A DNA stretch of 10,236 nt from Escherichia coli (GCF_003334355.1 NZ_QOWP01000056.1), one strand, 5' to 3'; shown: positions 306 through 10,236, counted from the stretch's first letter. Notes: generated from the letters alone by a model not told the origin. Made by a program: numbers and translations.

Positions 306-1361
306 TTAAAACTGATAGGTCATGCCAACCGCGACAATATCATCATTATTAATATTCAATTTGTTATCGCTATCCAGTTGGTTGATTTTATAATCAACAA
401 ACGCTGACATATTTTTGTTGAAATAATACGTAGCCCCGACATCGATATAATTGACCAGATCTTCATCACCGATACCTTCAATATCTTTCCCTTTCGATAA
501 GACATAACCCAGCGATGGACGCAGACCAAAGTCAAACTGGTATTGAGCGACCGCTTCAAAGTTCTGTGTCTTATTGGCAAAGCCGCCAGTTATTGGCGTC
601 ATTTTGCGTGTTTCAGAATAAAAAGTTGCCAGATAAATATTATTGGCATCGTATTTCAGACCTGTAGCCCATGCTTCTGCACGCTTGCCTGTGCCACGGC
701 TTTGCAGGTTCTGCTCGTTGGTGCGATCTGAGTTGGTATAGGCCCCACTAATGGCGAAATCGCTGCCGCCAAAGTCATATGTCAATGACGTGCCGAAGCC
801 ATCGCCGTTTTGCTTTTTAACGTCGCGGTTTTCGTTTTTCCCTTGATATTGCAGGGTTAAGTTCAGGCCATCGATAACGCCGAAGAAGTCGGTGTTCCGA
901 TACGTCGCCAGACCGCTGGCGCGTTTGGTCATAAAGTTGTCGGTCTGCGCCGAGGAGTCGCCACCAAATTCCGGGAACATATCGGTCCAGGCTTCCACGT
1001 CATACAACGCGCCCAGGTTACGACCATAATCGAAAGAACCCAAATCTTTATATTTCAACCCGGCAAAAGCGAGACGCGTTTTTTGCTGTGCAGTATCACT
1101 CTCTGCTTTATTACCGGCAAACTCTGCTTCCCAACGACCATAACCAGTCAGTTGATCGTTAATTTGTGTTTCGCCTTTAAAACCAAAACGGATATAACTC
1201 TGGTCGCCATCTTTACTGTCGTTATCACTCATATAATGCATGGCTTTAACTTTGCCATAGACATCCAGTTTATTACCGTCTTTGTTATATATTTCTGCGG
1301 CCTGTACGGATGCAGATGCCACAATGCCCATCACCACTAATGCCAGAGTGCTCTTTTTCAT
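306..1361 (-). CDS. phoE: Outer membrane phosphoporin PhoE
   Basis: 351-aa ORF; signal peptide [21 protein letters not shown], porin-type C-terminal ...VGMTYQF. Sequence recognised as E. coli PhoE. Start placed at the second ATG (1359-1361), which has AGGA 6 nt upstream; the ORF track starts 2 codons earlier at 1367. Confidence 0.96.
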
Positions 1362-1442
1362 TTTCATTCCTGATTTTAATTAACGCGCGAATATTCAGCG
1401 GGAGAGTCCCGTTGAAAACAGGAAAGTTTTTAACCTAAGATT

Positions 1443-2763: not shown

Positions 2764-4017
2764 ATGCTGGAACAAATGGGCATTGCCGCGAAGCAAGCCT
2801 CGTATAAATTAGCGCAACTCTCCAGCCGCGAAAAAAATCGCGTACTGGAAAAAATAGCCGATGAACTGGAAGCACAAAGCGAAATCATCCTCAACGCTAA
2901 CGCGCAGGATGTTGCTGACGCGCGTGCCAACGGCCTTAGCGAAGCGATGCTTGACCGTCTGGCACTGACGCCCGCACGGCTGAAAGGCATTGCCGACGAT
3001 GTGCGCCAGGTGTGTAACCTCGCCGATCCGGTGGGGCAGGTAATCGATGGCGGCGTACTGGACAGCGGCCTGCGTCTTGAGCGTCGTCGCGTACCGCTGG
3101 GGGTTATTGGCGTGATTTATGAAGCGCGCCCGAACGTGACGGTTGATGTCGCTTCGCTGTGCCTGAAAACCGGTAATGCGGTGATCCTGCGCGGTGGCAA
3201 AGAAACGTGTCGCACTAACGCTGCAACGGTGGCGGTGATTCAGGACGCCCTGAAATCCTGCGGCTTACCGGCGGGTGCCGTGCAGGCGATTGATAATCCT
3301 GACCGTGCGCTGGTCAGTGAAATGCTGCGTATGGATAAATACATCGACATGCTGATCCCGCGTGGTGGCGCTGGTTTGCATAAACTGTGCCGTGAACAGT
3401 CGACAATCCCGGTGATCACAGGTGGTATAGGCGTATGCCATATTTACGTTGATGAAAGTGTAGAGATCGCTGAAGCATTAAAAGTGATCGTCAACGCGAA
3501 AACTCAGCGTCCGAGCACATGTAATACGGTTGAAACGTTGCTGGTGAATAAAAACATCGCCGATAGCTTCCTGCCCGCATTAAGCAAACAAATGGCGGAA
3601 AGCGGCGTGACATTACACGCAGATGCAGCTGCACTGGCGCAGTTGCAGGCAGGCCCTGCGAAGGTGGTTGCTGTTAAAGCCGAAGAGTATGACGATGAGT
3701 TTCTGTCATTAGATTTGAACGTCAAAATCGTCAGCGATCTTGACGATGCCATCGCCCATATTCGTGAACACGGCACACAACACTCCGATGCGATCCTGAC
3801 CCGCGATATGCGCAACGCCCAGCGTTTTGTTAACGAAGTGGATTCGTCCGCTGTTTACGTTAACGCCTCTACGCGTTTTACCGACGGCGGCCAGTTTGGT
3901 CTGGGTGCGGAAGTGGCGGTAAGCACACAAAAACTCCACGCGCGTGGCCCAATGGGGCTGGAAGCACTGACCACTTACAAGTGGATCGGCATTGGTGATT
4001 ACACCATTCGTGCGTAA
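2764..4017 (+). CDS. proA: Gamma-glutamyl phosphate reductase (glutamate-5-semialdehyde dehydrogenase)
   Basis: 417-aa [35 protein letters not shown]..., recognised as ProA. AGGAG 2751-2755 precedes the ATG; 11-bp gap after proB indicates an operon. Confidence 0.96.
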
Positions 4018-4088: not shown

Positions 4089-4131
4089 CCTTGTCCACCG
4101 TGATTCACGTTCGTGAACATGTCCTTTCAGG

Positions 4132-4207
4132 GCCGATATAGCTCAGTTGGTAGAGCAGCGCATTCGTAATGCGAAGGTCGTAGGTTCGACTCCTATTATC
4201 GGCACCA
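4132..4207 (+). tRNA. thrW: tRNA-Thr (anticodon CGU)
   Basis: 76-nt sequence GCCGATATAGCTCAGTTGGTAGAGCAGCGCATTCGTAATGCGAAGGTCGTAGGTTCGACTCCTATTATCGGCACCA with encoded CCA; anticodon loop carries CGT; matches E. coli thrW. Confidence 0.96.
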
Positions 4208-4224
4208 TTCAAACATCTCCCCAA

Positions 4225-4245
4225 GTCTACTAAAGTCTTTCAAAA
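4225..4245 (+). repeat. Direct repeat copy 1 (GTCTACTAAAGTC + YYTCAAAA) between thrW and int; candidate integrase arm-type or accessory-factor site
   Basis: 13-bp core GTCTACTAAAGTC at 4225-4237 is identical to 4288-4300; flanking CTTTCAAAA vs CCCTCAAAA. Confidence 0.7.
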
Positions 4246-4287
4246 CCCCTTATAATCCGCGTATTAAAGCCCCGTTCGTCTTTTGAC

Positions 4288-4308
4288 GTCTACTAAAGTC
4301 CCTCAAAA
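4288..4308 (+). repeat. Direct repeat copy 2 (GTCTACTAAAGTC + YYTCAAAA)
   Basis: Identical 13-bp core, 63 bp downstream of copy 1. A perfect TATAAT hexamer (4251-4256) lies between the two copies. Confidence 0.7.
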
Positions 4309-4372
4309 TCTACGGTCAGATGGGGGTACTTATGGGGGTATTTGCTGTTCGGTTTAGTGGAGGTACCCCCAA

Positions 4373-5587
4373 GTGAAACTCAATGCCCGTCAAATAGACA
4401 CAGCCAAGCCAAAAGAGAAGGCTTACAAGCTGGCCGATGGTGGCGGTTTGTATCTCTTGGTAAAACCTAATGGAGGTAAATACTGGCGACTTAAATATCG
4501 TGTAGCTGGTAAAGAGAAGCTATTGGCACTAGGTGTGTATCCTGAGGTTACTCTAGCCGATGCTCGGGCAAAACGTGAAGATGCGAAAAGAGGTATCGCT
4601 GGTGGTATCGATCCGATGGAAGCGAAACGAGAGGAAAAGATTGCCCGGGAAACGCAGTTAAACAACACCTTCAAAGATATTGCCCTTGAGTGGCACAGCA
4701 GCAAATTAAAAAAATGGTCTGCTGGTTATGCTTCAGACATCCTCGAAGCCTTCAACAAAGATGTGTTCCCTTACATTGGCAAAAAACCAATCGCCGAAAT
4801 CAAACCACTTGAACTTCTGAATGTGCTGCGGCGCATTGAGGGGCGCGGTGCTACAGAAAAAGCCAAAAAAGTGAGGCAGCGGTGCGGGGAAGTTTTCCGC
4901 TATGCAATAGTCACTGGTCGCGCAGAGTATAACCCTGCACCAGACCTTACTAGCGCGATGCAAGGCCATGAATCTAATCATTACCCTTTCCTTACAGCCA
5001 AAGAATTACCTGATTTTTTCAAGGCATTGTCCAGTTACTCAGGAAGCGCATTGGTTGTTATGGCGGCTCGTCTACTGATTATCACAGGCTTGCGGACTGG
5101 CGAACTACGTGGCGCATTATGGGATGAAATTGATTTCAACAAGGCTCTCTGGGAGATACCCGCTTCACGTATGAAAATGCGGCGGCCTCATATTGTGCCA
5201 TTGTCTGAGCAGGCTCTTTCGCTTATTGGGAAGATTAGAGAAATAACAGGCAATTACCCTCTTATGTTTCCCGGGCGCAATGATCCAAGGAAAACAATGA
5301 GTGAGGCCAGCATAAACCAAGTGTTTAAGCGCATTGGCTACGCTGGACGTGTAACTGGTCATGGGTTCCGGCACACTATGAGTACGATTTTGCATGAGCA
5401 GGGCTATAACACCGCGTGGATAGAAACGCAGCTCGCTCACGTTGATAAGAACTCAATTCGTGGCACATACAACCATGCGCAATATCTGGATGGAAGGCGG
5501 GAGATGCTTCAATGGTATGCCGACTATATGGATTCTCTCGAGCATGGCGGAAATGTGGTGCATATGGTGTTTGAAAAACACGCATGA
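4373..5587 (+). CDS. Site-specific tyrosine recombinase, P4-type integrase family
   Basis: 404-aa ORF with GTG start, GGAGG 4359-4363. N-terminus KLNARQIDTAKPKEKAYKLADGGGLYLLVKPNGGKYWRLKYR is typical of the P4-family integrase N-terminal arm-binding domain; C-terminal GHGFRHT...RGTYNHAQY carries the H-x-x-R and catalytic Tyr motifs. Sits immediately 3' of a tRNA. Confidence 0.92.
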   Translation: MKLNARQIDTAKPKEKAYKLADGGGLYLLVKPNGGKYWRLKYRVAGKEKLLALGVYPEVTLADARAKREDAKRGIAGGIDPMEAKREEKIARETQLNNTFKDIALEWHSSKLKKWSAGYASDILEAFNKDVFPYIGKKPIAEIKPLELLNVLRRIEGRGATEKAKKVRQRCGEVFRYAIVTGRAEYNPAPDLTSAMQGHESNHYPFLTAKELPDFFKALSSYSGSALVVMAARLLIITGLRTGELRGALWDEIDFNKALWEIPASRMKMRRPHIVPLSEQALSLIGKIREITGNYPLMFPGRNDPRKTMSEASINQVFKRIGYAGRVTGHGFRHTMSTILHEQGYNTAWIETQLAHVDKNSIRGTYNHAQYLDGRREMLQWYADYMDSLEHGGNVVHMVFEKHA

Positions 5588-5840
5588 AACAACTGGACAA
5601 GTATACAGAGGTTTACTAAAGTATAGGGGAGTAGATTGATAAAAACTCACAGAGGATTACTATTTAACAGTTAGCCCTGGAGAAGGGCAATCGCTCTTTT
5701 AACAACGAAGATGGAATCTTCTACGCAGCTGAAAAGCTGGATGCTCTTTAACAGCCTTTGGTGCTTTCCTGATGCAGGAAAGAATAGGGATACATGCACC
5801 TTTACAATGCATGTAATGATTCATCCATGAGGCTGCGGAT

Positions 5841-5863
5841 CGCTGACAAAGCGCAATTGCTCT
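5841..5863 (+). repeat. 23-bp direct repeat copy 1 (CGCTGACAAAGCGCAATTGCTCT) with palindromic GCAATTGC core; candidate operator
   Basis: Identical to 5954-5976. Part of a 26-bp imperfect dyad TGACAAAGCGCAA|TTGCTCTTTAACA. The right arm GCTCTTTAACA recurs at 5743-5753 and, with one extra T, at 5692-5704. Confidence 0.8.
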
Positions 5864-5953
5864 TTAACATTGATGTGGGCGGGATGGTTCGTCCCGCAGT
5901 GACCGATAGATTTCTATCGGGAAACATACAATGATTCAAATATGAATCTACGG

Positions 5954-5976
5954 CGCTGACAAAGCGCAATTGCTCT
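5954..5976 (+). repeat. 23-bp direct repeat copy 2 (CGCTGACAAAGCGCAATTGCTCT)
   Basis: Perfect copy 113 bp downstream of copy 1. Similarity extends upstream imperfectly (ATGAGGCTGCGGAT vs ATGAATCTACGG). Confidence 0.8.
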
Positions 5977-6238
5977 CTTGCCTGCCCACCATGCCCTGAA
6001 AAAGGGCGTTCTTTAAAACTACTGGATGTCACGCCTAATAGCGTGATCCTGCCGAAATGCAGGGTAGCTCTACCCTTGTGGAGCAAACAAACCAAAACAA
6101 TCTGACTATCTTTTATAAAAGACCGCAATATGTTTTTCATATTGTGGTCTTTGGCGTATTCGACATTTGATGCAAATAAAACTCTCGCCATTCGTTGCAG
6201 GAGGGAGTTATTGCGTCATTAGTACAGGATATTAATAA

Positions 6239-6442
6239 ATGGCTAATTACAATTCATTAATTCGTCTCTCTGAAGTTCAAAGGCGAACTGGTTATAGCAA
6301 AGCATGGATTTATCGTCTTATTAGTCAGGGGAGGTTCCCTAAACAGGTAAAAATTGGAAGTCGGGCAATTGCTTTTGTTGAGTCTGAAATAGATGAATGG
6401 ATTGAGAAGTGTATATTAGAATCTAGAGACGAGGTGGCCTGA
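6239..6442 (+). CDS. alpA: AlpA-family phage regulatory protein (Xis/Vis-like winged-helix DNA-binding protein)
   Basis: 67-aa ORF MANYNSLIRLSEVQRRTGYSKAWIYRLISQGRFPKQVKIGSRAIAFVESEIDEWIEK...; helix-turn-helix segment and E-I-D-E-W motif characteristic of AlpA/Vis family; typical position downstream of a P4-type integrase. Confidence 0.85.
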   Translation: MANYNSLIRLSEVQRRTGYSKAWIYRLISQGRFPKQVKIGSRAIAFVESEIDEWIEKCILESRDEVA

Positions 6443-6873
6443 TGGAAAAGAAAAACCGCCCATTACAGGCGGCTAATTCAGATATTCGCGTATCTGATGT
6501 TACGCCCCTGACAAAATCCCTTCAAGCACCAAAGCGCACACCGAAAAAGCATCGTGCCAGAGTCTATATGCTGCGTACTGGTATAGAGGGATGGACAGAA
6601 AATGACATTCTTCGCTACTGCCGTCTGTCTTCTGGTCGTAACTATGCAACAGAGTTAGAACGCCAGCTTGGAATCACTCTGGAGCGTATCGACGAAAAGA
6701 ATCCTGATGGTATCGGAACACACCTTCGCTACCGTTTCTCCTGCCGTGGTGATGTTCTGAAAGTGATCACTCATGTTAACCATCTTGCGAGCATAAATGA
6801 TCACAACGGACTTTCTCAGCAGGAAATTGCCGACATTCTGAAACTCTACCCGGACGCGTTTAACGCCGCCTAA
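6442..6873 (+). CDS. Hypothetical protein (143 aa), basic N-terminal tail; function unknown
   Basis: ATG overlaps the alpA stop (TGATG); GAGGTGG SD at 6431-6437. No family recognised. Confidence 0.7.
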   Translation: MEKKNRPLQAANSDIRVSDVTPLTKSLQAPKRTPKKHRARVYMLRTGIEGWTENDILRYCRLSSGRNYATELERQLGITLERIDEKNPDGIGTHLRYRFSCRGDVLKVITHVNHLASINDHNGLSQQEIADILKLYPDAFNAA

Positions 6874-6885
6874 CGGAGACTGAAA

Positions 6886-7719
6886 ATGAACATCGAAAAA
6901 AGCAGATTAATTTCTGAGGCCGCCCCTCATCTGAACGCCTCTCTGGGCACAATTAACGGTAATGAATTTGCCGCAATTGTCCCGGTTATTCCTGGTCATA
7001 TCGGTGGGCGTGAAACCAATATTGTTAGCGCAAAAGCGTTACACAAAGCGTTGGGCGTGGGAAAAGACTTCTCTACATGGATCACTGATCGCATCTCTGA
7101 ATATGACTTCACCATTGGGCACGATTACTCAGTCCATAAAACAATTTCCCCAAATTTGGGGAAAAGCCCGAATGGCGCGGCTTACAGCAAGATTAAGCAG
7201 TCTGGCAGACCCGGCAAAGACTATCTGTTAAGTGTCGGAATGGCGAAAGAACTGGCAATGATCGAACGCAATGATCAGGGTCGCGCTATCCGCCGTTATT
7301 TCATCCAGTGCGAGGAAGAATTACAGCGTAGCGTGCCTGAAATCGCCGCCCGCTATCGTCGCCAGCTAAAAGCCCGTATCAGTGCCGCAAACAACTTTAA
7401 GCCAATGTGCGATGCGCTGAATATGGCCCGTGCCGAGATGGGTAAAACGACGCAGCAACACCACTACACAAACGAGAGCAATATGATTTCTCGTATCGTT
7501 CTTGGTGGGCTAACTGCTAAGCAGTGGGCGCGGATAAATGGCTATTCTGGCGAACCTCGCGACCATATGAACGCAGAACAGCTTGAGCACCTCTCATATC
7601 TCGAAAGCACCAATATCACGTTAATTGATATGGGCATGGAATATGAGCAGCGCAAAGGAGAACTCACCCGCCTGTCGCAACGCTGGCTCGCCAAGCGTCT
7701 GGAGGTGGTCAATGTCTAA
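6886..7719 (+). CDS. Phage antirepressor-like protein (AntA/KilAC-type N-terminal domain), 277 aa
   Basis: GGAGA SD 6875-6879. Motifs ...AKALHKALGVGKDFSTWITDRISEYDF... and ...DYLLSVGMAKELAMIERNDQGRAIRRYFIQCEE... resemble the AntA-type antirepressor N-terminal domain as I recall it. Confidence 0.8.
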   Translation: MNIEKSRLISEAAPHLNASLGTINGNEFAAIVPVIPGHIGGRETNIVSAKALHKALGVGKDFSTWITDRISEYDFTIGHDYSVHKTISPNLGKSPNGAAYSKIKQSGRPGKDYLLSVGMAKELAMIERNDQGRAIRRYFIQCEEELQRSVPEIAARYRRQLKARISAANNFKPMCDALNMARAEMGKTTQQHHYTNESNMISRIVLGGLTAKQWARINGYSGEPRDHMNAEQLEHLSYLESTNITLIDMGMEYEQRKGELTRLSQRWLAKRLEVVNV

Positions 7720-7894
7720 GCCAACAGGAACACCACAACCACAAAAACGCTACAAAGATGCCCACGGAGCACTCGTTACTGTCGAAAGCGTGTCTCACAA
7801 CCGAGTGACGTTTTATCGCGACGGGTATCAATCGCCATGCGTACAACCGCTGGCGCGTTTCATGAAGGAGTTCGCGGAGGTTAACAAATGCTAA
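7712..7894 (+). CDS. Small phage-type protein (60 aa); tentatively DUF4222-like
   Basis: ATG 7712 with GGAGGTGG 6 nt upstream, overlapping the upstream stop (ATGTCTAA). Translation [60 protein letters not shown]. The track ORF starts further upstream (7625) inside the preceding gene; the internal start is better supported. Confidence 0.65.
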   Translation: MSKPTGTPQPQKRYKDAHGALVTVESVSHNRVTFYRDGYQSPCVQPLARFMKEFAEVNKC

Positions 7895-8955
7895 CCGTCC
7901 AGAAGAAGACATTTTCACTGGCTGGTATGTCGCCAAAATCCAGCAATATGACGGCAAAGTCAGGCATTAATACAGCAGATACAAGCAAAGTTTATCATTT
8001 GCTGGTGGTCGGAACGGATGCCTTAACCATATCAGAAATCTCGGGCGATGATATTAGCATTGAGAAGGTCAGCGGCTGCGCCAGAAAATTTCTGGTCGTA
8101 GATGATGTCTTCCGCTCGTGTAGTGACTCCACAAAAACATTCGTCCACGCGCGTGACGTTAACGAAATGAGCGCGATGTACTGTGCATCTGGTGCTTCCA
8201 ATAGCGAGTTTTCGGAGTCCATAAAAAAGAGCTTGCCGTTATGCGGCAACACGGTTTATGGTTATAAGGCACCTCATAAAACGGGTGCCGGGATTGGCGT
8301 CCTGGTAAATCGAATGGCGACATATGACGCGCCGAGCGTCTTTTTTTATGTCGTAGGTCTGACTCACCCATTTTTTGGGCGTTGGTGTATAATCCAGCGC
8401 CTTTGTCAATCAATGGTGGCTCAGGCAGGGGCTTCTTCGGAAGCGCCGGTATCCATTCGAGCCGGTTACGCCAACCCTGTCTGGGCTACCACCAGCGAAA
8501 TTGGCGTTTCCGGTGGTAGCGTTACATGCTATCGAATGGAGGCTGCCACATGCTGGCTACTACCCCTACCCAAAAACCGCAATTTATCTGGATTATCGCC
8601 GCAGTTCGCCGCGATTGCCCGACAATTACCGCCAAAATTCATCATATTGCTGCCGAGTCTGAACGCGATGCTCGCCGTTCTCTGGTGCGCGATCACGTCT
8701 GCTTTTTTGCTGGTCGTATCCGCATGGAGGTGGCACATGATTAAAACCTACGATGTGCATATGGATCCCCTCGAACGCACAAGCCAGATCATCACACTGA
8801 CAGAAGTGATTAACGACATTCTGGTGAGCAACTCTCCCTCACGAGACGAAAGACTGAAGGCGTTACTCGCGATATTGGATCTCGCCGTTCGTGACGTTCA
8901 TTTCCTGCTGGAAGGTGGCGAAATGCCAGGAAAAACGGGGGCAACCAATGAATAA
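7888..8955 (+). CDS. Unresolved 355-codon open frame: real N-terminal gene start at 7888; frame stays open through the structured RNA region, the Icd-like gene (other frame) and the 8737 small gene
   Basis: ATG 7888 with GGAGG 7 nt upstream and ATGCTAA overlap with the upstream stop supports initiation. No stop in this frame until 8953-8955. Residues ~176-215 ([35 protein letters not shown]) resemble what databases label ash family protein, but this stretch coincides with strong RNA hairpins. The true C-terminus is unknown. Confidence 0.3.
8326..8347 (+). terminator. Intrinsic-terminator-like element inside the 7888 frame
   Basis: GACGC (8326-8330) / GCGTC (8336-8340) 5-bp GC-rich stem, 5-nt loop, followed by seven T (8341-8347). 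A second T6 run is at 8371-8376. Confidence 0.35.
8388..8393 (+). promoter_or_regulatory. Consensus -10 hexamer TATAAT, TG immediately upstream; possible promoter for the structured RNA/icd leader
   Basis: GTGTATAAT at 8385-8393. No convincing -35 at 17 bp spacing, so weak. Confidence 0.25.
8428..8520 (+). ncRNA. Candidate c4/CI-type antisense regulatory RNA (three consecutive hairpins)
   Basis: HP1 8431-8444: GCTTC/GAAGC stem with TTCG tetraloop. HP2 8445-8466: 6-bp stem (2 wobble) with a 10-nt loop carrying TCCATTCGA (8452-8460). HP3 8485-8520: 9-bp stem CTACCACC.../...GGTGGTAG plus 6-bp inner stem, TTGG loop. The HP2 loop is exactly complementary to TCGAATGGA (8532-8540), which overlaps the GGAGG SD of the Icd-like gene, and 8/9 complementary to 8310-8317. 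Confidence 0.4.
8550..8744 (+). CDS. Host cell division inhibitor Icd-like protein (64 aa)
   Basis: ATG 8550 with GGAGG 8538-8542. Translation [64 protein letters not shown]; the F-x-W-x-x-x-A-V-R-R ... E-x-x-A-R-R ... F-A-x-R pattern matches my recollection of Icd-like proteins of P1/P4-type elements. The track start at 8526 lacks an SD. Confidence 0.6.
   Translation: MLATTPTQKPQFIWIIAAVRRDCPTITAKIHHIAAESERDARRSLVRDHVCFFAGRIRMEVAHD
8737..8955 (+). CDS. Small acidic hypothetical protein (72 aa), independently initiated
   Basis: ATG 8737 with GGAGGTGG at 8727-8734; overlaps the icd-like stop as ATGATTAA. Translation [72 protein letters not shown]. Same frame as the 7888 ORF. Confidence 0.55.
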   Translation: MIKTYDVHMDPLERTSQIITLTEVINDILVSNSPSRDERLKALLAILDLAVRDVHFLLEGGEMPGKTGATNE

Positions 8956-9142
8956 CTCAATTAATACCCCTCGCCTTACGTCCGCACTTCAATTAATCGA
9001 GCAAGCAGCGGCTGTCCTGGTTGCTGTCAGTCTTTCGGCTGAAGAAATGGACGCTGCTGATGTCGTGGATGCGATTAAAGCGTGCTCATCTTTGGTTAAC
9101 GATGCCCGTGCCGAGCTGGTAATTCTTGGGGGTGAAAAATGA
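8948..9142 (+). CDS. Small acidic hypothetical protein (64 aa)
   Basis: ATG 8948 overlapping the upstream stop (ATGAATAA); [64 protein letters not shown]. The track start at 8891 lies inside the upstream gene. Confidence 0.6.
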   Translation: MNNSINTPRLTSALQLIEQAAAVLVAVSLSAEEMDAADVVDAIKACSSLVNDARAELVILGGEK

Positions 9143-9402
9143 ATATCAACTTAATTTATCGTCATCCGTGTGAGCTGGAAATTGAATCATTGCTGGGGCG
9201 TGAAGAGCCATATCCAGACACATTCACTCCCGCAGATTGCGCGACTGAACGGCTTACCAGAGCGCGCACAGGTCTGGTTCATGTGATGAATGAGATTGTT
9301 CCCTCGGTGGGAGGGGAACAGGCGACAGTAATCAATAGCTGGCTACAAAAAGTTACCTCCCTGATAGATATCGGTTTAATCGATGTGGAGAGTGCGAAAT
9401 GA
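9139..9402 (+). CDS. Small acidic hypothetical protein (87 aa)
   Basis: ATGA overlap with upstream stop; GGGGGTG upstream; MNINLIYRHPCELEIESLLGREEPYPDTF... Confidence 0.65.
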   Translation: MNINLIYRHPCELEIESLLGREEPYPDTFTPADCATERLTRARTGLVHVMNEIVPSVGGEQATVINSWLQKVTSLIDIGLIDVESAK

Positions 9403-9620
9403 CCAACATCCAGCTCATTGAAGCGCAATGTCGCATCGAACAGGTTCAGACTGTTTTAGGGTTCTGGCTTGAAGGGGCCAGCCCCAGCAACAGAGACAAG
9501 TTAATGATTGGCGCGGTTATGTCACTGCTCAATGGCGTACCAGAAGCTATTCAGGAAGCGGACGAATTGTTGGGCAAATATGAGTTACAGAATCATTCAG
9601 GCGAGGCGAAACATGAATAA
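9399..9620 (+). CDS. Small acidic hypothetical protein (73 aa)
   Basis: ATGA overlap with upstream stop; GGAG at 9387-9390; MTNIQLIEAQCRIEQVQTVLGFWLEGASPSNRDKLMIGAVMSLLNGVPEAIQEADELLGKYELQNHSGEAKHE. Confidence 0.6.
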   Translation: MTNIQLIEAQCRIEQVQTVLGFWLEGASPSNRDKLMIGAVMSLLNGVPEAIQEADELLGKYELQNHSGEAKHE

Positions 9621-10161
9621 TTTCTTAACCTTCCATGCAGAAGCAACGCCTGACGGCGTAAACATCATGCACCGCAGCAACGATGGCATGACAGAACGCG
9701 TTGAGACCGTCTCATATATTGATGCCGTAAATCGTCTGGATGCCGGGGATTATGACGATAAACCAGATGAAGGCATGTTTATACATCTCGCTATTGCCAG
9801 TGGCGGCAACCAGGGATATTTCGATTACACATCACAGCATCACGTGATTATGTGGCGCTGGCTGATAGCAACAGCATTCATCAATGAAATGAGAAAGGAA
9901 AACGGCACCGTCAGCATTATTGATGACAGTGGCAATCATTCCGTGGTTTCTGTTTATTCCAATGGCATCGTCGCCATGCCGCTGTATCCAGTAGCAGAGC
10001 GCCTCGCTATGGCAAACAACATTGAGGGCGCAATGATCGAGAAATATGGTGTTGATGTCGGAACAAAGAATGCCATCATTTTTTACAGCAACATGTTCGA
10101 TGTCGAACAGGGAACACTCACTTCGTTTGGGCGAGAAGTGCTTGCCGATCTTCACAACTGA
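9613..10161 (+). CDS. Hypothetical protein (182 aa); stop codon supplied by the first 3 nt of the downstream IS, so possibly C-terminally truncated
   Basis: ATG 9613 overlapping upstream stop (ATGAATAA), GAGG at 9603-9606; MNNFLTFHAEATPDGVNIMHRSNDGMTERVETVSYIDAVNRLDAGDYDDKPDEGMF.... The track start at 9508 is inside the upstream gene. TGA 10159-10161 coincides with the IS terminal TGAACCGCC. Confidence 0.7.
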   Translation: MNNFLTFHAEATPDGVNIMHRSNDGMTERVETVSYIDAVNRLDAGDYDDKPDEGMFIHLAIASGGNQGYFDYTSQHHVIMWRWLIATAFINEMRKENGTVSIIDDSGNHSVVSVYSNGIVAMPLYPVAERLAMANNIEGAMIEKYGVDVGTKNAIIFYSNMFDVEQGTLTSFGREVLADLHN

Positions 10162-10236
10162 ACCGCCCCGGAAATCCTGGAGACTAAACTCCCTGAGAAA
10201 GAGGTAAACAGGATGACTAAAAATACTCGTTTTTCC
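10159..10236 (+). mobile_element. IS3-family insertion sequence (IS629/IS1203-like), left end; continues beyond window
   Basis: TGAACCGCCCCGGAAATCCTGGAGACTAAACTCCCTGAGAAAGAGGTAAACAGG then ATG...MTKNTRFS matches my recollection of the IS629-type left inverted repeat and OrfA N-terminus. From memory, not verified. Confidence 0.65.
10213..10236 (+). CDS. IS3-family transposase OrfA, N-terminal 8 codons (3'-partial at window edge)
   Basis: ATG 10213 preceded by GAGG; MTKNTRFS...; only 24 nt available. Confidence 0.5.

Follow-up and report, generated by a model that had tools for sequence, protein, structure and literature searches.

An IS1203-interrupted island at thrW of Escherichia coli is in all likelihood the left third of an EcCIMP1-type phage satellite

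RESULTS

Features of the thrW locus

The window analyzed in this study is the whole stretch of 10,236 bp from Escherichia coli (GCF_003334355.1, NZ_QOWP01000056.1), in which an integrated island starts at the 3' end of the tRNA gene thrW and runs into an insertion sequence (IS) at position 10159. We propose, with a probability of about 0.9, that the segment 4191-10158 is the left third of a Gram-negative phage-inducible chromosomal island (PICI) of the EcCIMP1 type, i.e., a satellite of P22-like phages (Lederbergvirus), integrated in thrW. Ahead of the island, the window holds phoE (306-1367, minus strand), proB, proA (2764-4017), and then thrW, as in an Escherichia/Shigella-type chromosome; thrW and its upstream flank show 0 mismatches to K-12 over 347 bases, and the G+C content goes from ~0.55 in proBA to ~0.46 to 0.48 after the tRNA gene. 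The features from thrW onward are the following.

4132-4207, plus strand: thrW, tRNA-Thr(CGU), the integration target; sole tRNA found by ARAGORN (Rfam tRNA, 71.8 bits)
4191-4209, plus strand: attL core, from a three-way alignment of the window attL, the attR of genome A29, and K-12 thrW
4225-4343, plus strand: candidate arm-type sites for integrase binding, namely GTCTACTAAAGTC at 4225 and again at 4288, and two copies of ATGGGGGTAYTT in 4320-4343 (repeat search)
4373-5587, plus strand: P4-family tyrosine integrase, 404 amino acids (aa) (Pfam Arm-DNA-bind_3, Phage_int_M, and Phage_integrase; PHROG 1)
5588-6238, no strand assigned: int-alpA regulatory region with a variable segment at 5761-5995 (repeat search; comparison with EcCIMP1)
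6239-6442, plus strand: AlpA (Pfam PF05930 Phage_AlpA, E = 8.5e-20)
6442-6873, plus strand: conserved 143-aa protein of the Bro zone, no assigned function; open reading frame (ORF) conserved in all relatives examined
6886-7719, plus strand: AntA/AntB-family antirepressor-like protein (Pfam PF08346 AntA; PHROG anti-repressor Ant families)
7712-7894, plus strand: DUF4222 small protein (annotation of identical A29 DNA; 8 of 10 variable sites at third codon positions)
7888-8955, plus strand: Eta/Ash-like ORF of 355 codons, enclosing the immunity RNAs, the Icd-like ORF (in another frame), and an in-frame 72-aa gene (8739-8955)
8036-8142, minus strand: inverted 107-bp piece of a P22-type small-terminase gene (gene 3), ~91% identical to terS of IME10 and related E. 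coli Lederbergviruses
8269-8346, plus strand: isrK / P4 seqA-like RNA with intrinsic terminator (Rfam RF01394, 67.1 bits versus a gathering score of 50)
8409-8496, plus strand: C4 / P4 CI-like antisense immunity RNA (Rfam RF01695, 79.5 bits versus a gathering score of 45)
8550-8744, plus strand: Icd-like ORF with its ATG at 8550 (NCBIfam NF033153 phage_ICD_like, 71 bits versus a cut-off of 25)
8948-9142, 9139-9402, and 9399-9620, plus strand: three small conserved ORFs at the start of the replication operon (annotation of identical A29 DNA, offset 15901)
9613-10158, plus strand: truncated gene of a phrog_1515 protein (PHROG 1515, E = 1e-40)
10159-10236, plus strand: left end of IS1203, an IS3-family element, reaching into orfA; 78 of 78 bases agree with annotated copies of this IS

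Identity with EcCIMP1 and the PICI family

EcCIMP1 was described in E. coli MP1 as a 19,963-bp PICI inserted in a tRNA-Thr gene between proA and yagU, with the core TCCTATTATC and genes for int, AlpA, an antirepressor, an "Ash family protein," a DNA primase, DNA-transfer proteins, and PerC (Pick, Stadel and Raivio, ISME J 2025, PMC11773190; GenBank OR778291). The window is 98.4% identical to the MP1 locus over 4100-5760 and 94.4% identical over 5996-10158, with one 235-bp indel, and its gene order is that of OR778291 / CP139039. The intact copy of genome A29, which has no IS, differs from window positions 4100-10158 by ~1 base, and the AlpA protein accession of A29, whose alpA is identical to that of the window, is also that of MP1. 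At least 80% of the island part of the window is found in 287 of the 5426 complete E. coli genomes.

Circularization of EcCIMP1 was detected solely in the presence of the P22-like helper phage vB_EcoP_Kapi1 and rose further upon mitomycin C induction; both int and the canonical alpA are needed for excision and circularization, alpA being helper induced and activating its own expression, and Kapi1 transduces the island at a low rate (PMC11773190). According to the same authors, EcCIMP1 has neither terminase nor capsid genes, its packaging mechanism is unknown, it scores only "Type C #var01" under the scheme of de Sousa et al., and few of its hosts carry Kapi1-like prophages (PMC11773190). An excised circular form, which the original prediction had suggested looking for by PCR, was in this way demonstrated by others for the near-identical EcCIMP1 (PMC11773190), and a public viral contig contains an attP junction as well (see below). 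The element family is already described and functional, and is neither anonymous nor a decaying cryptic prophage.

Mageeney et al. (2023, PMC10111431) divide Gram-negative PICIs into an integration, a Bro, a replication, and a late zone, arranged in this order. In the window lie the integration zone, with int and alpA, the Bro/immunity zone, and the beginning of the replication operon. As had been predicted, the P4-type integrase starts 165 bp past thrW and is transcribed away from it; the protein shares 42.7% identity with P4 Int across 96% of its length (E = 4e-95), matches PF13356 and PF00589, and is ~49% identical to the IntS proteins of HK620 and Kapi1. The inward int is followed by a co-oriented alpA, both with Pfam support, which is the arrangement of Gram-negative PICIs and not that of prophages (PMC10111431). 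Between their att sites, the intact relatives measure 18.4 kb (A29) and 19,963 bp (MP1), which on these relatives agrees with the ~10 to 20 kb expected of a PICI. They carry no capsid, tail, terminase, or lysis genes, their virion-related genes being solely homologues of the P22-type genes 14, 7, 20, and 16. Likewise, the annotation and PHROG scans of the relatives contained none of the packaging-redirection genes (terS, rpp, ppi, capsid), the 107-bp terS-derived piece being the only trace.

The phage- or satellite-like regulators that had been noticed at first sight (AlpA, antirepressor-like, Icd-like) were recovered as matches to PF05930, PF08346, and NF033153. Upstream of alpA, the 235-bp segment 5761-5995 contains ~113-bp direct repeats and AGCGCAATTGC palindromes and is missing from EcCIMP1. 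In EcCIMP1, an alpA-lux fusion spanning -449 to +50 was helper induced (PMC11773190), and the equivalent region here is the int-alpA stretch. A minus-strand ORF annotated there by RefSeq (5802-6191, 129 aa) is doubtful, since it has no family match and is not conserved in MP1. Downstream of alpA, the 143-aa protein had no match in PHROG or NCBIfam, 12 of the 20 variable sites of the antirepressor gene fall at third codon positions, and the DUF4222 gene and the Eta/Ash-like ORF overlap by their stop and start codons, respectively (ATGCTAA).

Attachment sites and mobility of the island

thrW is a known phage attachment site. The att core, predicted in the tRNA 3' end at about 4185-4207, was placed essentially correctly: the direct repeat TCCTATTATC occupies 4191-4200, and attL/attR identity continues to 4209 save for one missing G. 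The downstream repeat of the thrW 3' end that this implied exists as attR in intact relatives and is conserved in four genomes (A29, H10407, 510016, and MP1), and both ends of the island can thus be read in these relatives. In A29, 18.4 kb past thrW, the sequence reads ...GTGTATTGTTCCTATTATC-GCACCATT and then continues as the exact K-12 thrW-downstream sequence, i.e., the CP4-6 left end; therefore, the island inserted between thrW and whatever lay behind it. The gene content at thrW also differs among genomes, K-12 having CP4-6 directly after thrW and no copy of this island. Neither of the two outcomes named as refuting in the original prediction was therefore obtained. With the attR-type right end written as ...GTGTATTGTTCCTATTATCGCACCATT and attP as GTATTGTTCCTATTATCGGCACCATTCAAACATC, the aligned junctions indicate that integration restores an intact thrW, the tRNA 3' end being supplied by the island's own attP. 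The crossover would lie within ATTATC (4195-4200), because the secondary-site junctions of strain 510016 have only (C/T)ATTATC in common. A ATGGGGGTACTTTTGGGGGTAT sequence matching the left-end repeats stands ~60 bp inside attR in A29, H10407, 510016, and MP1; these paired ATGGGGGTAYTT repeats just inside both ends are candidate arm-type sites for the arm-binding domain of the integrase.

The island was encountered as a unit in four contexts. (i) In A29, it adjoins thrW with CP4-6 behind it, i.e., two elements in tandem. (ii) In enterotoxigenic E. coli H10407, it comes second in tandem, after a thrW prophage of the contractile-tail type, and begins at an incomplete thrW copy of 46 nucleotides (nt) whose core carries one G-to-A change (locus positions 15990-16060 and 33633-33660). 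(iii) In strain 510016, it lies inside a lambdoid prophage (locus positions 15598-35084), co-oriented with the late genes, where it interrupts a gene for a DNA methyltransferase that lies between Q and the tRNA/lysis genes. (iv) In the viral contig IMGVR_UViG_2617270975_000009 (21,415 bp), the right end, with P22-type genes 14, 7, 20, and 16 followed by a pRiA4b ORF-3 gene, is joined to int via a reconstituted attP (9681-9717), the DNA after int being unlike that of the window. Testing this contig for circularity gave no terminal redundancy; its attP corresponds to either an excised circle or a tandem copy, which are indistinguishable because the contig end sequence occurs only once. Read from these junctions, the island moves as a unit of 18 to 20 kb with defined ends.

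Two side observations concern these loci. The arrangement in 510016 recalls helper-embedded PICIs, though at a secondary site. In MP1 (locus positions 8213-8720), a second attL-like sequence, 83% identical and with a truncated arm-binding integrase, directly follows the EcCIMP1 attR and belongs to a degenerate neighboring island with vat and marR, thrW being a hotspot for tandem arrays.

A proposed RNA immunity module within the Eta/Ash-like ORF

Within Bro-network genes such as P4 eta, the C4 and isrK models of Rfam pick up RNAs related to P4 CI and to its target seqA (PMC10111431). In the window, the isrK-like RNA ends in a terminator-like hairpin (8326-8340) followed by a T run, and the C4-like RNA exposes on hairpin 2 a 12-nt specificity loop, TATCCATTCGAG (8450-8461), with TCCATTCGA (8452-8460) as its pairing part. 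Two targets face this loop: TCGAATGG (8310-8317), upstream in the isrK-like leader, and TCGAATGGA (8532-8540), downstream, which overlaps the Shine-Dalgarno sequence GGAGG of the Icd-like ORF. Across eight island copies, all 27 of 27 pairs of the C4 fold form in every variant and 7 pairs are changed on both sides; among the 4 distinct sequences of these copies, paired cells reach 100%, compared to 27 to 52% in slid controls. The loop and both targets change together into four specificity alleles, CATTCGA (window), CTTCAGA, CTTGTAC, and CTTTGTGT, three loop versions being found among the eight copies (alignment columns 1110-1345) and the fourth in a distant island between yicC and dinD (9100-9330). 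The targets measure 8 to 10 nt, the complement at the icd site being 9 nt long in three alleles and 10 nt long in the fourth, and two upstream sites contain one G-U pair or one mismatch.

By analogy, the regulatory zone would be a P4/P1-type RNA immunity module with heteroimmune specificities. In the quiescent state, the hairpin-2 loop of the C4/CI-like RNA would pair with the site in the isrK/seqA-like leader and with the icd ribosome-binding site, thus blocking translation and favoring termination before transcription reaches icd, the small ORFs, and the primase operon. Upon helper induction, upstream transcription and translation of the Eta-like ORF would read through, resulting in expression of the primase, after which the island would replicate and be packaged into helper capsids.

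The Eta/Ash-like ORF itself is a peculiar frame. The Pfam match to Phage_ASH (PF10554) covers aa 124 to 232, i.e., 8257-8583 in the window, exactly over the isrK and C4 RNAs and the icd ribosome-binding site, and the Pfam Ash family may largely reflect RNA conservation. Of 8 variants, 6 keep the ORF open and 2 have it broken, and its changes are spread over the three codon positions without bias (53/44/53). Nevertheless, the explanation of the ash ORF as a spurious translation of RNA genes was downgraded, given that the frame stays stop-free across three very different RNA alleles (~2e-5 by composition), that a long ORF spans the region in a distant relative too, and that P4 eta is a translated ORF enclosing cI (PMC10111431). 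We thus treat it as a translated leader ORF of uncertain protein function.

Late zone, related islands, and the terS-derived piece

The late zones of the intact relatives code for ejection/head-completion homologues, namely, P22-type 14, 7, 20, and 16 in MP1 (13481-18649) and only 20 and 16 in A29 (29648-33219). Compared with Kapi1, their proteins are similar in the N-terminal parts (83% for gene 14, 54 to 58% for genes 7 and 20) and divergent in the C-terminal parts. Two related islands between yicC and dinD (4549-16588 and 5861-18019) combine the same Bro zone and small ORFs with a different integrase and a P4-family primase, a composition which shows modular exchange within the family; they have neither P22-type late genes nor the terS-like piece. 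In one of them, the position of that piece was searched for another phage-derived segment, but nothing there matched the phage collection.

Partial matches to the window, mostly over the 107 bp of the terS-derived piece and within an annotated DNA-packaging gene, were obtained in ~280 further E. coli genomes. The EcCIMP1 allele aligns to P22 positions 4-110, and the annotated P22 pac is 4-25; hence, the piece starts at the pac-equivalent position. The 22-nt pac-equivalent of the island agrees with P22 pac at 16 of 22 positions, compared to 15 of 22 for that of IME10. Beyond it, the segment varies with terS alleles, being IME10-like in the window and P22-like in the island copy PigCaeca_2, a pattern suggesting that it was exchanged with phage genes more than once. 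The terS gene of Kapi1 is unrelated and does not match the piece. These points, together with the absence of the piece from the two yicC-dinD islands that have no P22-type late genes, speak for a function. We found no prior account of it in the literature searchable here.

Possible, but less likely than not, is the hypothesis that this piece, which starts exactly at the pac position and has been kept in EcCIMP1-type islands, is a working device to hijack the helper. As a pac mimic, it would let P22/IME10-type terminases start headful packaging on island concatemers; alternatively, lying antisense to island transcription, it would yield an RNA against the helper terS mRNA. If so, the high-efficiency natural helpers would be Lederbergviruses with a P22/IME10-type TerS, and not Kapi1, whose unrelated TerS gene would explain, if the device is real, both the very low transduction of EcCIMP1 and the few Kapi1-like prophages among its hosts. 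Weighing against a function, the piece could be a relic kept merely by lying inside the Eta-like ORF, and the positive and negative examples are few and phylogenetically linked. The published P22 pseudo-pac pattern (PMC11226127) was tried and set aside: the island reaches 15/17 in the window and 16/17 in most variants, compared to 17/17 for IME10 and P22, but ~10 unrelated 15-16/17 matches arise by chance in the 10-kb window. Since such chance matches are common, the pattern is uninformative, and only the argument from homology and position stands.

IS1203 and the state of this copy

The original prediction had seen an IS interrupting the element at 10159, and this IS is indeed IS1203, of which the window holds the left end. 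From there on, the window departs from every intact relative, the homology ending at 10158. The last of the small ORFs before it (9399-9620) matches a PHROG of unknown function, and the phrog_1515 gene that follows, 200 aa long in A29 (equivalent to 9613-10215 in the window), has its last 19 codons replaced, its stop being supplied by the IS. IS1203 thus sits 57 bp before the end of this gene, and in A29 the gene of a 918-aa TOPRIM/DUF927 primase starts 13 bp further on; the same primase (PHROG 1139, E = 3.5e-178) is present in all intact relatives, so that the IS intervenes 70 bp before its expected start. The primase has probably been cut off from its operon by this insertion, and the copy may be disabled as a result.

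Accordingly, the alternative to be weighed most seriously concerns the state of this copy and not the type of element, and is compatible with the assignment to the PICIs: the copy could be a dead remnant, cryptic and incapable of replication or transfer, in which IS1203 separates the regulatory/immunity zone from the primase and more may have been lost beyond the window. The position of the IS just ahead of the primase start argues for it, and crl, at the opposite window end, carries an IS10-like insertion, which suggests an IS-active genome. On the other hand, the DNA left of IS1203 keeps its near identity to the intact copy over 6 kb with all ORFs open, which suggests a recent insertion and leaves IS1203 as the only visible lesion, and int and alpA, needed for EcCIMP1 excision, are intact here. 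We give this possibility slightly less than an even chance. The term "decaying cryptic element" in the original prediction hence does not hold for the family, a described and functional phage satellite, and holds only as damage by IS1203 to this copy.

At the crl side, positions 1-156 are the end of an IS10/ISVsa5-like element (IS4 family), crl being intact from ~157, and this IS-crl junction is common to 39 complete genomes, including K-12 laboratory strains of the DH5alpha type, at 96.7% identity. Both window ends therefore fall within insertion sequences.

DISCUSSION

Assignment to the EcCIMP1-type PICIs and its alternatives

Two other types of element could in principle account for the window. 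That it belongs to a P4-like satellite dependent on a P2-type helper is very improbable. The P4-family integrase, the AlpA/Vis-like regulator, the RNA module of the Eta/CI/seqA type, and the large primase of the relatives would all fit such an element, but the experimentally identified helper of EcCIMP1 is a P22-like podovirus (PMC11773190). Moreover, no homologue of sid, delta, or psu appeared in the annotation or PHROG results of the intact relatives, whose late zones hold P22-type 14, 7, 20, and 16 instead and whose primase is of the TOPRIM/DUF927 type. Weaker still is the idea of the left end of an ordinary, possibly defective, P22-like or lambdoid prophage, for which the attachment site, the P22-like ejection genes of the relatives, and the P22-type terS fragment could be invoked, but which is contradicted by the int-alpA arrangement, by intact relatives of only 18 to 20 kb between att repeats that are devoid of capsid, tail, terminase, and lysis genes, and by the insertion of the whole unit within a real lambdoid prophage in 510016.

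Several points nevertheless weigh against the assignment to a functional EcCIMP1-type PICI, or narrow it. The allele found here differs from EcCIMP1 at the immunity specificity, the terS-like piece, and the 235-bp segment; therefore, helper range and inducibility may differ. The window stops 78 bp into the IS, and this copy may still possess an intact primase, late zone, and attR or may have had them rearranged or deleted. The exact IS1203/island junction was absent from the 5426 complete E. coli genomes and from the GTDB species representatives. Finally, the proposed RNA mechanism is drawn from homology and covariation, and a consensus promoter scan placed no promoter confidently for the C4 RNA.

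Significance

The element is a copy of a satellite family named and tested in 2025 and is, thus, already known; this family is carried by ~5% of complete E. coli genomes. For annotation, what is usually called an "incomplete prophage" at thrW is a PICI, and its "ash family protein" coding sequence holds two regulatory RNAs. To this picture our study adds the exact crossover region, four co-varying immunity specificities, a secondary integration in a prophage, and the terS/pac-like piece, as leads and not as discoveries. Among these, the piece alone has the potential to advance the field: should it function, it would stand as the pac-type counterpart of satellites with a helper cos site, would name the real helpers of the family, and would answer the packaging question left open by the EcCIMP1 authors.

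Comparison with known systems

The Gram-negative PICIs EcCICFT073 and EcCIEDL933 (PMC10111431) have in common with this family the inward int-alpA pair, the Bro zone with antirepressor-network proteins and C4/isrK RNAs, the primase zone, and captured helper late genes, whereas here the captured genes code for podovirus ejection proteins and the helper is P22-like, not lambdoid. Closest of all is EcCIMP1, with which the window shares the thrW site between proA and the yagU side, the TCCTATTATC core, and the gene order. The window differs by the extra 235 bp upstream of alpA and by IS1203, by its immunity loop (CATTCGA compared to CTTGTAC in EcCIMP1), and by another allele of the terS-like piece. 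The late zone of EcCIMP1 comprises 14, 7, 20, 16, and a second alpA, while the nearest intact copies, of the A29 type, have 20 and 16 only.

With satellite phage P4, the island shares the integrase family, integration at a tRNA 3' end, an AlpA/Vis-type regulator, and a CI RNA nested in a translated eta ORF with seqA/seqC targets, before the primase operon. It differs from P4 in being about twice its size, in having no sid, delta, or psu, and in its primase type and helper family. CP4-6 of K-12 also uses thrW and stands in tandem with the island in A29, but its genes are unrelated, it abuts thrW directly in K-12, and its integrase is at the far end.

In the immI region of P1 and P7, the loop of the c4 RNA pairs with two targets, one of them over the icd ribosome-binding site, and the specificities of the two phages differ by a few co-varying bases. 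The module of the island resembles this c4-icd-ant system in its structured C4 RNA and in its two loop targets, one likewise over the icd ribosome-binding site, whereas its Ant-family gene lies upstream of c4-icd and the genes that would be controlled are the small ORFs and the primase.

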